From positions 19,344,001 through 19,408,000 of the forward strand of contig OZ024742.1 in NCBI GenBank assembly GCA_964016885.1: DNA of 64,000 nucleotides. Reading direction: 5' to 3'. The stretch is from Eledone cirrhosa. Lineage: Eukaryota. The position numbers and the translations under genes are program-made. The notes under the pieces are model-generated. The model saw nothing but the letters and a program-made list of their open reading frames with translations. It was not told the DNA's origin and did no database searches. Below are positions 3,921 through 62,590 of the stretch, piece after piece. The stretch's first letter is position 1. Each line of letters opens with the position of its first letter.

Positions 3921-4107
3921 GAATAATTGTAGGTAGTATGCCAAAATTAGCACTCAGTATTCATACAGAGTAGAGTGTGGATAGTATAGAAAAACGAAAA
4001 ATCAGTGATGCATCTGGACTCAGTTTATTGCGTGTTACATTGTAACAATTGTAGCACGCAATAAGCTGAGTCCAGATGCATCACTGATTTTTCGTTTTTT
4101 TATAGTA
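3921..4107. mobile_element. PLE-type fold-back element A
   Basis: Inverted arms 3981-4039 and 4049-4107. The turn contains AACAATTGTA (hammerhead GAAAC-AATT-GTA remnant). Unpaired tail 3921-3980. Flanked by (TG)n and (TA)n. Confidence 0.7.
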
Positions 4108-4148
4108 TATATATATATATATATATATATATATATATTTGTGTGTGT

Positions 4149-4393
4149 AATTCCGAAGAAAATGCAAAGGAAAAAAGTGTGCTCTATGTATAGAACAGAG
4201 CTATTTAATTAGAAAGTGAACAACACAATATATAACAACTACTCCATTACCAAAGGTTTCAGGACTCTAGACAATATTAATATACGTCTGGATCGTTCAT
4301 CTGATGAACGATCCAGACGTATCTTAATATTGTCTAGAGTCCTGAAACCTTTGGTAATGGAGTAGTTGTATATTGTGTTGTTCACTTTCTAAT
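4149..4393. mobile_element. PLE-type fold-back element B with hammerhead at the turn
   Basis: Arms 4208-4300 and 4304-4393 centred on cat-ctg-atg. Tail 4149-4207. Confidence 0.75.
4296..4361 (+). ncRNA. Hammerhead ribozyme (type I)
   Basis: ttcat CTGATGA [stem II ccagac/gtctag] GAAA cc-ttt-g GTA atgga. Core boxes, stem III and stem I can all form. Confidence 0.65.
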
Positions 4394-4884
4394 ATATATA
4401 TATATATATATATATATATTTATTAAAATATAGTCTTGAAATTTATTATTATTACTATATATATATATATATATATATATATATATATACGTGTGTGTGT
4501 GTGTGTGTGTGTGTGTGTGTGTGTGTGTGTGTGTGTGTATGTGTGCGTATATGTATGTACACCTTTTCTTTGTTGGATATACACGTTGTGTTGTCTTTAA
4601 TATGATTTCTATAAACGTTCAAAGAAACTTGTCATTAGCCATAGGTAGAACCTACTTGATAATTCTAAATCCAGAATCTAAACCTACTTAACCTTCGTTC
4701 TATTATTTCAATTGCTTGATTTTCAGATTCATTTCATCCAAGATTAGCAATATACTGTAACCATTTTGATACCAACACACCCCAAAGCGCAGCATTTTCT
4801 ATGAAATAAAACCACACACATTAAAGAGCCCCTACTTAAGACCTTCCAACATAATTTTATCAAAGAATAGTTTGTTTCAAATAC

Positions 4885-5236
4885 CATCTTAATGAAAGGT
4901 CCCTGGGTCTCCTGCCGGTTGGTTTTTCCCGCACAATCTGTCCAGCGATTCTTTCCCGGGACATTCTAACTATATGCCCATAGTATGGGAGCTGTGATCT
5001 CTCAATTCGGAGAAATAGTGGCTCTACCTGGAGTGACTTTCTGATCTCCGAGCTACGCACTCTATTGAGTAACGTCACTCTAAAGACCCTTTGGAAGAAC
5101 CTCATTTCGGCCGCTTGTATTCGCAGTGATGCGCCAGCTTCAGCATTCAGTAATCAGAAGAACGGAGATAGGAGTAAAAGCCAAACTCGTTATCTTCTAT
5201 TTGGTCATGAAACTTTGGTAATGACCAAAAGAAAAC
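4885..5236 (-). pseudogene. RTE-clade LINE 3' fragment with an inverted 5' piece
   Basis: LRIQAAEMRFFQRVFRVTLLNRVRSSEIRKSLQVEPLFLRIERSQL.YYGHIVRM..GRRPR on minus. Its upstream neighbour LLFGHETLVMTKR lies on plus at about 5190-5235. Confidence 0.8.
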
Positions 5237-5249
5237 ATTTGATAATTGC

Positions 5250-5430
5250 TTGGCAATCGGTAGAGGGTCGGACGTCATGCTTTGCAGCATTGAGTTACGG
5301 CCCTTTATGTATGAGTTCAAATCCCGCCGAGGTCAACTTTGCCTTACATCCTTACGGGGTCGATAAAATAAAGTACCAGTAATGTACTGGGTAATTGATG
5401 GCCTTGTGCCAAAAGTAGAAACAATTAATT
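5250..5430 (+). mobile_element. tRNA-derived SINE (main family)
   Basis: A-box-like tggcaatcggtagag, B-box-like gagttcaaatccc, central gccgaggtcaactttgccttacatccttacggggtcgataaaataaagtaccag, tail ggccttgtgccaaaagtagaaacaatt. Confidence 0.9.
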
Positions 5431-6589
5431 AAGCATAATACGTAATGTTACCAACATTAATAGACTATATCATTCTATATGCATGCAGGCACGTGAGCCT
5501 TTATGTATGTACTCGCACGCACACTCATATTTCACTGGTAAAATATTTGTTCTTTATATCTTAACAGCTCCAACAAATATATATATTTGTGTTTATATTT
5601 AATATATATATGTGTGTGTATTGTGTGTGTCAACACATACACACATATGTATATATATAAATGTGTGTTTGTCTGTGTGTGGGGGCGCGGGTGTATATAT
5701 ATATATATATATATATGCATAGAGATAAGTGTACGTATGTATGTGTACATACACCTTTCCTTTGTTGTATCTTCAAATACAAATAGACAAATACGTCTAT
5801 CATTTACGATGTTTGTATAGAAAAACATCAATGGATGTTATTATTAGCCGTGGGTAAAAGCCACTTGATAATTCTATGTCCACAATCTCAAGTTTGCTTA
5901 CCCTTGATGCTATTAATTCCTTTATATTGCCCACGGGTTGCCAAGTATTTGACTTTGATATTCTCAACTTATCTCATCATATGTCATCCCATCCAAGATC
6001 AGCAATATGTTTTGACAATGGAATTAAGGAAGACGATATTATTCCAAGCCATCTGACTAGACCGTATGTCACAGACTTATTCTTTCTTCAGACACATCAA
6101 CAAGAAAAATAATATAAGATAAATATATTAAAGGAATGAGGAAATTACTTTGTTTTTATATCAAAAGAATGTCCTGGAGAATACTAAATGTGGGCGTCGG
6201 TGTTTTTGTTTTTACCAGAAATGTGTTGAAAGGCGATCGTTGTGATCTCCCAGATGTCTATCTTTGCAATTCTGCCGATGGGAAACTATTTCCGAATATG
6301 GAAAAAATATGTTTGTGTTTTGAAATGATAGCATTAGATGTTGGCGTTGATGTTCTTGTGCAACACAAACTTAAGCACACTAGAGAACGAAATGGAGATT
6401 TGTGTTAATTTTAAATGCCTATGTTCTAAGCTTTCATAATGTTGATAATGTATGTTATTAAAATATTAGACAGATATTTCTTATGAAAATACATACACAC
6501 AGCTTCTGAACTGTGTACAAGTCGTTGATTTTGTCTCTTAAAGATTGAGCCAGGAATATAGTTGACTGTGGGTCTATCAAAGCTGGTAA

Positions 6590-59997: not shown

Positions 59998-60125
59998 CGT
60001 TATTCTGGGTTGAATCGGAGGTAACCACAGTAAGTAAGGTACTCAATACATTGCAGAGTATAAAAGTTTTAATATAGATGAGATTCTACAGGACTAGAAC
60101 TGTTTCATATATAGAACTGTTTCAT
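59998..60125 (-). mobile_element. Naiad terminal-repeat fragment (hammerhead 3' half + tail)
   Basis: Reverse complement of 61365-61476. Breaks in stem II, with tagaactgtttcat duplicated. Confidence 0.85.
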
Positions 60126-60459
60126 ATATATACATTTGTGTGTATGTGTATGTATATATATATGTGTGTGTGTTTGTATATATATATATGTATATATATG
60201 TGTATATATATATGTATATATATATATATGTATATATATATGTGTGTATAGATGTGTGTACGTATACGTGTGTGTGTGTGTGTATATATATATATATGTG
60301 TATATATATATATGTATATATATATATATATATGTGTATATATATATGTATATATATATGTGTATTTGTGTATGTGTATGTGTATGTATGTAATTATATT
60401 TATATATGTATGTGTGTGCGTGTATGTGTGTGTGTGTATATATAGGAACGATCGACTTT

Positions 60460-60646
60460 CGTCAAATCGGACCGAGGGAACAATGTTTCCGTTGGTCTTT
60501 CCAATTGCTAGTACTATCTATCGGTCGCAACTCCAGGTAGAAGGAGCAACGTGAAATAAAGTGTCTTGCTCAAGGACATAACGCATCGCCTGGTCCAGGA
60601 ATCGAACTCACAACCTTACGATTGCGAATCCAATTCTCTAACCACT
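60460..60646 (-). mobile_element. CORE-like tRNA SINE
   Basis: Minus: agtggttagagaattggattcgcaatcgtaaggttgtgagttcgattcc..gttatgtccttgagcaagacacttt. Confidence 0.82.
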
Positions 60647-60804
60647 CATATATATATATATATAGGTTTTAATATAGATGAGATTCTACAGGACTAGAAC
60701 TGTTTCATTCTTTAGAAATCATCAGGAATATAACCATAGTGGCCGTATTTCAGGTTGAGGAGGGGTGGGGAGGAGGTATAGGGGCCAATAGGGGGAGGTC
60801 GTTT

Positions 60805-61310
60805 TTAGCCATCAGGCTTTAACACTGGCTTAAAGTGTTTGAAAGTTGCAAAGTTCTTGTGCATGCAGTTCGGGCAGTGTTCAGAGAGTTTGTTCAGTAG
60901 CGGGCCCTTGGCGAATAAAATTTCGTAGCTCTCTGAAATACAAAGGTCGCAGCCCTTGTGTCCTCCGTTGTAAGAGCGCGCTTTCTGGAGTATTTTCCAT
61001 TTAAGCGTGAAGGGGGTGGAGTTCTTTTTGAGGTCCCAAACGTAGGAGGCGAGTGTTGTCTGATTTGATTTATCCGGTCTTCTGAAGGAGTGGGTATGGG
61101 CATACCAACGGGTCTTAAAGTTGTTGGAGGTCATGCCGATGTAAGTTTTTTTGCAATCCTCGGTGCCTGAGATGACATCGCATTTGTATACGATATCATT
61201 TGTGAGGCATTTGTTTTCAAGTGGGCATGCTTCCTTATTTAGGCAATTACATAGAGCCCCAGTCCGGGGATTGGGTTCGGAGGTGGTTGGCTTATTTAAT
61301 TTTTTAGAAT
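60805..61310 (-). CDS. GIY-YIG endonuclease C-terminal fragment of a Naiad-type PLE
   Basis: CNCLNKEACPLENKC (CxCx5Cx5C) LTNDIVYKC..TYIGMT..FKTRW..H..SF..CDLC..E..LLNK.SE..CMH. The frame extends upstream of the track ORF. Confidence 0.85.
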
Positions 61311-61343
61311 TCTAAAAATTTTTTTAGAATTTTTTTAGAATAT

Positions 61344-61390
61344 ATTCCTGATGATTTCTAAAGAATGAAACAGTTCTAGTCCTGTAGAAT
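61344..61390 (+). ncRNA. Hammerhead ribozyme
   Basis: attc CTGATGA tttc-taaa-gaat GAAAC ag-ttctagtc-ct GTA gaat. Mirror copy at 60683-60729 on minus. Confidence 0.8.
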
Positions 61391-62590
61391 CTCATCTATA
61401 TTAAAACTTTTATACTCTGCTATGTATTGAGTACCTTACTTACTGTGGTTACCTCCGATTCAACCCGGAATAACGTATATATATATATATATATATTTAT
61501 ATTTATATATATGTATGTGTGTGTATGTGTGTGTGTGTATGTATGTGTATATGTATGTGTGTGTGTGTGTATATATATGTATATATATGTATATATGTGT
61601 GTGTGTGTATATATATATATATATATATATATATATGTATATATATGTATATATATGTGTGTATATATATGTATATATGTATTTGTATGTGTATGTGTAT
61701 GTATGTGTGTGTGTATATATATATATATATATAAATATATGTATGTATGGTGTATGTGTGTGTATATATATATGTTCTGTTTTGTTCCCGTTCAATTTTT
61801 CCTTATATTTGTGTATATGTGTGTGTGTGTGTGTGTATATATATGTATATATGTGTGTGTATGCGTGTGTGTGTATATATATATGTATATTTTTTTTAAT
61901 ATATATATATGTATATATATATATATATATATGTATGTGTGTATATATATACACATGTATATATGTGTGTATGTGTGTATATGTATATGTGTGTATATAT
62001 ATATATATATATATATATATATATATATATATATATATATATATAAATATATTTATATGTGTGTGTGTGTTTTTATGTGTGTATATGTGTATGTGTGTTT
62101 ATGGTTGCGCGCGAGTGTGTGAGTGAGTGTGTTTTGTGAATGTGTCTGTTGATTTTTGGCATATAGTTGAATAGTTTATGAGAAATTTGAAGATAATTGT
62201 AAGATATGCACTCAATATTCTGAATTTGTCTACAGAATTCTCTAAACCTTTGTCACTTAGTAGAATCTTAATGAATTTAGCTTTTAAAGAATCTCCCTTT
62301 CCTTTAAATCTATCTACCATGACTGACCCCCCACTGATCTTATAGACACCTGTTAGCTTAAGAGAAACTTAATAACAAGGAATGGCATGCCATCCTGAAC
62401 CTGTTTATAGAATTCTGTCTGCCTTTGTTACTCTAAAAACAAAAATAAATAAAAATAAACTATAGCTTTGTAGAATTAGCTTTTAATGAATTCCCTTTTC
62501 TATCAACCAATGACCTACACCCATCCCACTCCCCACCCTGTCCTACCACTTGTAGAGGCCTATAAATACCATACTTATTTTTTGATACCC

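Follow-up and report, generated by a model that had tools for sequence, protein, structure and literature searches.

The DNA analysed here is a window of 64,000 nucleotides of Eledone cirrhosa (assembly GCA_964016885.1, contig OZ024742.1, positions 19,344,001 to 19,408,000) in which short palindromic inserts carrying hammerhead ribozyme motifs recur. Our main finding is that these palindromes are probably single insertions of Penelope-like elements (PLEs), each consisting of two arms that were both copied in the sense direction and meet head to head. Each arm would be a separate complementary DNA (cDNA) that began at one or other of two internal start sites and ended where the element RNA is capped at its 5' end; the two cDNAs would be primed on opposite target strands and copied from one RNA or ribonucleoprotein (RNP), and host repair would join the cDNA ends after trimming, in some cases at short palindromes, of which loop III of the hammerhead is one. 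An extra G at the 5' end would be a copy of the cap. Because the start sites of the reverse transcriptase (RT) lie only about 60 to 270 nt from the RNA start, the default product would be a strong-stop-like stub; and since the hammerhead fills much of this interval, it would often hold the turn of the palindrome without causing it.

An earlier note on the window had described 11 inserts with inverted arms, designated here by their first positions. All are present at those places, with arms 91-100% identical when the window is aligned to itself after masking of simple repeats. The inserts do come from several families, as had been supposed, but from eight rather than 11: inserts 3921 and 46681 belong to one family (G; cluster 16), and 40205, 47007 and 60666 to another (H). 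What had been overlooked is a one-sided extension of 55-130 bp, the tail, which is present in 10 of the 11 inserts; none was found for 46681. We examined these features in a non-random sample of 1.864 Mb of the 3.0-Gb genome, composed of 464 kb in and around the window, ten 100-kb blocks taken arbitrarily, and further 100-kb stretches that extend four of the blocks rich in elements. Natural copies served as the reference sequences of families, and positions are numbered from G12 of the hammerhead. Counts of pairs and ends involve 17 families; family P was left out because its alignments broke up, and families c13, in which no core was found, and c18 were left out of further analysis.

Two 3' ends exist per family in the families examined; in family F, for example, they lie at +43 (42 matches) and +124 (63 of 139), giving tail-less and tailed copies. 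Across the 17 families, 593 copies have a proper 3' end, and 517 of these adjoin TA repeats. The description of the inserts as lodged in (TA)n is thus accurate for most copies, but the left flanks of 3921, 33622 and 47007 are other simple repeats; as the flanks are simple repeats, a target-site duplication cannot be delimited. Copies of one family form head-to-head pairs in 148 cases, and 140 of these combine a tailed with a tail-less arm. The remainder are six pairs of tail-less arms, among them window insert 40205 with its diverged tail, and two pairs of tailed arms. Same-family neighbours in other orientations are far fewer (four tail-to-tail and three tandem), and the junction is free of simple repeat in 147 of the 148 pairs; we therefore take a pair to be the product of one event. 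Independent insertions into one TA tract are ruled out by the pair counts, and non-LTR retrozymes (LTR, long terminal repeat) by the three tandem neighbours against 148 head-to-head ones.

How far the two arms reach bears on the way they were made. Considering the 114 uncensored pairs, in which neither arm reaches the end of its reference, the tail-less arm extends further 5' in 50 and the tailed arm in 21, while the two agree within 5 nt in 43. Window copy 60666 is an example of the former, its tail-less arm being long and its tailed arm short. Fold-back of one tailed cDNA is disfavoured by these figures, since a copy cannot outreach its template and would have no reason to stop at a fixed internal position. 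Both arms belong to the same subfamily in all 34 classifiable F pairs (10 of 44 were unclassified).

At the 5' side, ends pile below a sharp edge that is particular to each family: measured from G12, it lies at -22 to -18 in F, -25 in D, -25 to -23 in H, -62 to -59 in c7, about -73 in c10, -112 in E2, -126 or -122 in E1, and -130 or -115 in c15. The edge is common to both arms and to solo copies. Relative to C3 of the hammerhead, the extremes are F, where the edge is 40 nt downstream and falls in loop II of the parent, and E1, where it is some 90 nt upstream. Inner peaks of ends in E1 (+17), B3 (+8/+24) and F (-14/-8) proved to be false, arising where the reference departs from the subfamily, and F was recomputed.

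These edges bear on the idea, put forward in the earlier note, that the ribozyme fold stalls the RT, whereupon the cDNA snaps back and the second arm is made from DNA. The turn is indeed in the ribozyme or at its edge in eight window inserts (3921, 4149, 20839, 33622, 40205, 46681, and the short arms of 10030 and 60666), and is clearly outside it in 21075, 47007 and 34790. Stalling could also account for 12 pairs centred on short palindromes of the parent, and for arms of the same subfamily. However, in families whose edge is outside the ribozyme (E2, c7, c10, c9 and B5), 25 of 71 ends below the edge fall within the ribozyme, where 36% are expected (p=0.90), and the sequence upstream of the edge is not predicted to pair strongly in any consistent way, its percentiles in 11 parents ranging over 0.10-0.94. 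Tailed ends show no excess at the predicted hammerhead cut site (3 of 82, with 3.2 expected). Solo copies have the same edge, the tail-less arm is often the longer, and the fixed internal stop of the second arm is left unexplained. The stop lies at an edge particular to the family, and families differ by more than 100 nt in how far this edge is from the ribozyme. Turns fall in the ribozyme mainly where the edge itself is at or in it (D, H, F, c11 and c15), and it is because of such families that the turns had seemed to belong to the ribozyme. As a general rule, stalling and snap-back is largely refuted and we consider it very unlikely; it could hold for a minority of pairs centred on loops II or III.

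Several marks suggest that the edge is likely to be the capped start of the RNA, that is, a transcription start. We scored edges against the common TATA and initiator consensus sequences. In 12 families with data-defined edges, CA occurs within 1 nt of the edge in seven where 2.15 would be expected (p=0.002), and the TATA scores add up to 60 against 50.6 (p=0.004); TATA-like boxes are located about 30 nt upstream in H, c7, c9 and B5. Moreover, of 53 ends at the edge, 26 have G as the first base beyond the parent sequence, as opposed to 38 of 156 elsewhere (p=0.001), in a test for which the +1 positions were chosen after the edges had been seen, some ends are the two arms of one insertion, and three copies that adjoin simple repeats were dropped. 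The central base of window insert 20839, at 21001, is an extra G of this kind. An untemplated G in L1-driven insertions has been ascribed to copying of the cap (PMC3287187), and the promoter of Penelope is situated in its terminal repeat (PMC2377424). Raw reads of three other samples have loose ends on the E2 parent at the predicted +1, L061:3739 (74, 50 and 71 reads), although these are restriction-site-associated DNA sequencing (RAD-seq) reads and hence represent few loci. As a side observation, three diverged E1 parents share an octamer, ATTTGCAT, which precedes the 5' edge by 35-55 nt (family E1 parents in blocks C13, C15, C4 and C3).

The edge could instead be a 3' splice site or another processing site, with RNA cut, and perhaps recapped, at an acceptor then templating the two cDNAs. 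Spliced copies prove the acceptor of family H to be real, and it sits at -23, within 2 nt of the edge; AG is found at or near the edge in c7, c9, c10, D, E1 and F, and the intron of the Drosophila virilis element ends at helix I (PMC4209133). Set against this are the edges of E2, c15, c11 and B5, which have no AG, the ends of F and D, which peak on the A of YAG and not after the G, and the upstream TATA-like boxes just mentioned. On balance, processing is an unlikely origin for the edge, although in H the real acceptor keeps it a serious contender.

Family H provides the most complete view of an element. Window copy 60666 physically links the motif to a GIY-YIG frame, as had been claimed: the junction is present. 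The frame at 60808 matches at 95-100% identity in all 150 scored genome places, several of them in frames of about 758 aa; a protein search for longer relatives of it gave none at E<=1e-10. The family has a 759-aa frame with a weak Pfam match to GIY-YIG (E=0.005), and family P has an RVT_1 match (E=1.5e-4), so that an open reading frame (ORF) with RT and GIY-YIG is present in H and P; full-length elements of B4, C, D, E1 and G lay outside the comparison. Family F adjoins a broken H-like ORF in L175. One full-length H copy contains, counted from G12, a TATA box at -55, the acceptor at -23, the hammerhead, the 3' ends at +41 and +109, and the ATG at +156, followed by the ORF, the 3' untranslated region (UTR), a GTGAGT donor and a long TA/TG-rich intron. 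This order places the RT start sites of H about 65 and 135 nt from the putative RNA start. Owing to the long intron, some apparent TA flanks of long copies lie inside the element.

Spliced copies of H bear on the template. In the long arm of 60666 the 3' UTR is joined directly to the acceptor. Exact-pattern matches genome-wide give nine spliced and 457 unspliced copies, that is, about 2% of junction-bearing copies are spliced, and intron retention is the rule in this family, with these exceptions. At two loci the spliced junction is present in both arms, which points to both arms having come from one RNA or RNP. Since the donor lies after the ORF and the acceptor before it, the spliced template would be either a tandem transcript or a back-spliced circle. 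The short copies of the acceptor subtype begin, in four cases out of four, with the G preceding the acceptor, as would be expected if transcription started there or if the G came from a cap.

Several points weigh against head-to-head joining of two cDNAs that end at a capped start. As regards the pairs, 43 of 114 are near-symmetric, later deletions at palindrome centres could produce the asymmetry of arms, and the 12 palindrome-centred pairs, loop III included, are compatible with fold-back or annealing; in addition, two cDNAs from one RNA region need strand displacement. As regards the edge, strong TATA boxes (3 of 12, with 1.4 expected; p=0.14) and YA (8 of 12, with 5.2 expected; p=0.09) are not significantly enriched, and E2, c15 and c11 have no TATA. 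The share of extra G, high in E2 (7 of 10) and D (4 of 7), is low in F (8 of 24), and the retrospective choice of +1 positions, the double counting of arms and the dropped copies also detract from that test. The H edge falls on a genuine 3' splice site; the AG found at or near six other edges has the same bearing. Finally, the start site is deduced from genomic DNA rather than from RNA 5' ends, the sample is non-random, and small families have just two to four ends at the edge.

The junctions themselves speak to two further explanations. Self-priming on an antisense template was proposed to yield head-to-head inversions, and this is the published reading of palindromes at inverted junctions (PMC3846280). 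Near-symmetric pairs are common, as it would have them; yet the promoter marks, the extra G and the spliced junctions are all on the sense strand, and junction gaps are heterogeneous, from -6 or less to 12 or more, which makes this origin quite improbable. Another scenario holds that a few palindromic master copies per family were mobilised as non-autonomous elements, their centres decaying later. Some junctions do recur (two E2 pairs at -113 and several F pairs at -22/-21), but most differ, those that recur coincide with palindromes of the parent, and the edge is the same in solo arms and in unequal pairs; we give this scenario very little credence.

Concerning the class of the inserts, the earlier note saw them as retro-derived PLE ends that merely look like miniature inverted-repeat transposable elements (MITEs), and our results bear this out: the tail is one-sided and the centres of junctions differ between copies. 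For the same reasons, and because symmetric fixed terminal inverted repeats are absent, a MITE or DDE transposon is rejected. Assembly or library fold-back could be invoked insofar as no contig or read was found to span 3900-4420 in full. Nevertheless, arms differ by up to 9%, the tail is on one side, 3' ends are fixed, and independent short-read contigs contain other inverted junctions of family B4; artefacts and DNA-transposon MITEs alike are barely credible. A separate family with symmetric ends, MITE-like and also in TA tracts, does exist in blocks C1, C2 and C15 (cluster 1). The inserts are members of the endonuclease-positive (EN+) PLEs, of known architecture, and neither MITEs nor retrozymes.

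The presence of hammerhead cores or halves in the inserts was likewise upheld, a minimal-hammerhead descriptor giving 10 matches in the window against a mean of 0.64 (maximum 3) in 50 shuffles. An Rfam scan of the window showed no hammerhead among the 150 listed of 182 matches, which were mostly microRNA models on simple repeats. Cores or variants, all predicted ribozymes, were located by eye in 18 families. A type I core with three stems and covariation is seen in family H, where pair 4 of stem I is C-G in 10 and A-T in nine of 24 distinct sequences. Stem I has 8 bp in E1 and only 2 bp in P. Variant cores, altered at position 3, 4, 5 or 8, and stem II domains that span 55-110 nt characterise several families, namely C, D, F, G, c7, c9, c10 and c15; examples are L188, L003 and L027, together with three in the window at 10221-10292, 21007-21032 and 46804-46812. 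A compact, isolated hammerhead-like core in no palindrome is located at 14587-14620.

In the window, the first family G pair (3921..4108; tailed arm on the minus strand, tail-less arm on the plus) turns on the palindromic loop III and has the 3' half of the hammerhead only. The B4 pair (4149..4393; tailed minus, tail-less plus) has a core at 4301-4349 on the plus strand and turns at C3/U4 with a 2-nt overlap. In the C pair (10030..10542), a long tailed minus arm with the variant core faces a short tail-less plus arm that begins in stem III at 10471. Arms of the D pair (20839..21076) begin at the family edge, at 21000 (minus) and 21002 (plus), on either side of the extra base, which is G on the tailed arm; its variant cores are that at 21007-21032 (plus) and another at 20970-20995 (minus). 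A GAAAC at the centre of this insert was discarded as a core, being merely the reverse complement of GTTTC, with the variant core beginning at 21007. Next to it, the E1 pair (21078..21528, insert 21075; tail-less minus, tailed plus) contains complete type I hammerheads at 21334-21383 (plus) and 21136-21185 (minus), and turns 60-85 nt upstream of the core. A solo tailed D copy on the plus strand (29566..29763) begins at the family edge and has no partner arm.

The F pair (33622..33830; tail-less minus, tailed plus) has 3' halves at 33644-33666 and 33707-33729, and its arms begin at the family edge, -19 and -22 from G12, in the loop II of the parent. A long copy of family P (34790..39173) has its tailed arm on the minus strand, with a 5'-truncated RT-GIY-YIG frame from 35376 to about 38434, and a tail-less inverted plus arm from 38435; the turn lies inside the ORF, and cores are at 35102 (minus) and 38916 (plus). 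Pieces of family P occur at 241-2349, 30362-30823 and 35376-38434, and its ORF has an asparagine-rich insert, of a kind known in rotifer Penelopes at other positions (PMC3846280). The second G pair (46681..46939) has its variant core, with a long stem II domain, on the minus strand, and its turn spans stem I and the start of stem II.

Family H accounts for the other rows. Pair 40205..40362 (tailed minus, tail-less plus) turns in loop II. Pair 47007..47332, with a tail-less minus arm that includes a TATA box (47087-47097) and a tailed plus arm from 47176, has complete hammerheads at 47024-47062 and 47200-47238 and turns outside the ribozyme. A solo tailed minus copy (59997..60108) ends in loop II, joined to TA, and lacks a partner arm. 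In pair 60666..61476, the long tail-less minus arm carries the GIY-YIG frame (60808-61311) and a hammerhead (60687-60725), and the short tailed plus arm a hammerhead at 61348-61386. The spliced junction of the long arm, at 60729..60730 on the minus strand, fuses the 3' UTR donor (GTGAGT follows in unspliced copies) to the acceptor just 5' of stem I. A tail-less unspliced plus copy (62291..62657) holds the 3' part of the intron, a TATA box at 62561, the acceptor and a hammerhead at 62597-62635.

A hairpin motif, RCTC...GAGY, stands after the tail-less end, within the first 55 nt of the tails, in eight of 17 otherwise unlike families (0.27 expected, maximum 3), and may be a signal at which the RT binds or starts; window examples are at 4199-4180 (minus), 21446-21470, 33755-33780 and 61413-61435. 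Head-to-head junctions without simple repeat also occur between different families (F with B4; block C4 at 36720 and block C15 at 146407), and these may be nested insertions. Outside the finding, the window contains inverted pairs of an abundant repeat that resembles short interspersed nuclear elements and has no hammerhead (12689-13061 and 18406-18638), as well as a two-ORF long interspersed nuclear element with Pfam matches to AP endonuclease and RT (48011-52967, minus). One 100-kb block, L101-L110 (C5:60.0-60.1 Mb), stands apart from all the others in having no palindromes and hardly any simple repeats.

EN+ PLE insertions often consist of an inverted 5'-truncated copy with a one-sided tail (PMC3846280, PMC8557442), and ours resemble them in the head-to-head inverted terminal repeat, the tail at one end, the (TA)n targets and the C-terminal GIY-YIG frame. 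They differ in that most consist of two arms of 50-200 bp, with tails of 40-140 bp as compared to 30-40 bp in published cases, and in that their 5' ends accumulate at an edge fixed for each family, where promoter marks and an additional G occur. Family H is placed, from motifs alone, in the Hydra clade (PMC8557442): its protein has DKT, a CxCX5C linker, and CxxC and CxH around the nuclease E and N, and the short ORF and TA targets are shared; unlike members of that clade, it has the long intron after the ORF and its rare spliced copies. Minimal hammerheads in PLE terminal repeats, and opposite-strand pairs of them 100-700 bp apart, were already noted (PMC4209133). Like those, the motifs here are type I, have an extra base after A9 and a palindromic loop III, and occur in many families per genome; unlike them, they include several core variants and long stem II domains, and are predicted only. 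Non-LTR retrozymes are likewise short non-coding hammerhead-bearing derivatives of PLE repeats (bioRxiv 10.64898/2026.07.22.740005), but are head-to-tail tandems, whereas the pairs here are head to head and often have neither a complete core nor an upstream TATA.

[quoted passage not shown] The arrangement of two start sites is the same here. In our case the use of one start site per strand is deduced from genomic copies; the portion of the Poseidon account available to us is without 5' junctions, inverted pairs or an RNA start.

A more specific model is possible, which we put forward tentatively. A PLE dimer would prime both nicked strands on one capped RNA, with one start site per strand, so that every insertion would begin as a pair of strong-stop cDNAs. 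The stubs would be that intermediate fixed in the genome, mapping each family's promoter to the base. Long copies would need a longer template. This could be RNA that reads through from a tandem copy; for the rare spliced copies, 60666 among them, it could be a circle formed by back-splicing, in which the donor that follows the ORF is joined to the acceptor that precedes the hammerhead. Retroviral strong-stop DNA is a short cDNA that runs from an internal start to the cap, and in L1 twin priming both target strands prime, the second cDNA beginning inside the body and giving an inversion. The stubs would be akin to both, to the first in running from an internal start to the cap and to the second in priming on both strands; unlike a twin-primed inversion, they are palindromes of the same region.

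In the literature searched, which consisted of main texts with few subscription papers or Repbase notes among them, we found no published account of strong-stop or twin-primed PLE stubs or of fixed capped 5' edges; palindromes and hammerheads go unmentioned in the accessible part of a recent octopus repeat annotation (PMC13282606), and the available text of PMC8557442 calls the origin of PLE inverted ends and of the tail open. Our counts give a specific alternative to antisense self-priming, testable in the existing in vitro system. Spliced H copies are an exception to the intron retention of PLEs. The counts also show a large class of palindromes that look like MITEs to be retro-derived: the ten arbitrary 100-kb blocks hold 82 pairs, and, if these blocks are typical, the genome would contain, by order of magnitude, 10^5 palindromic pairs.

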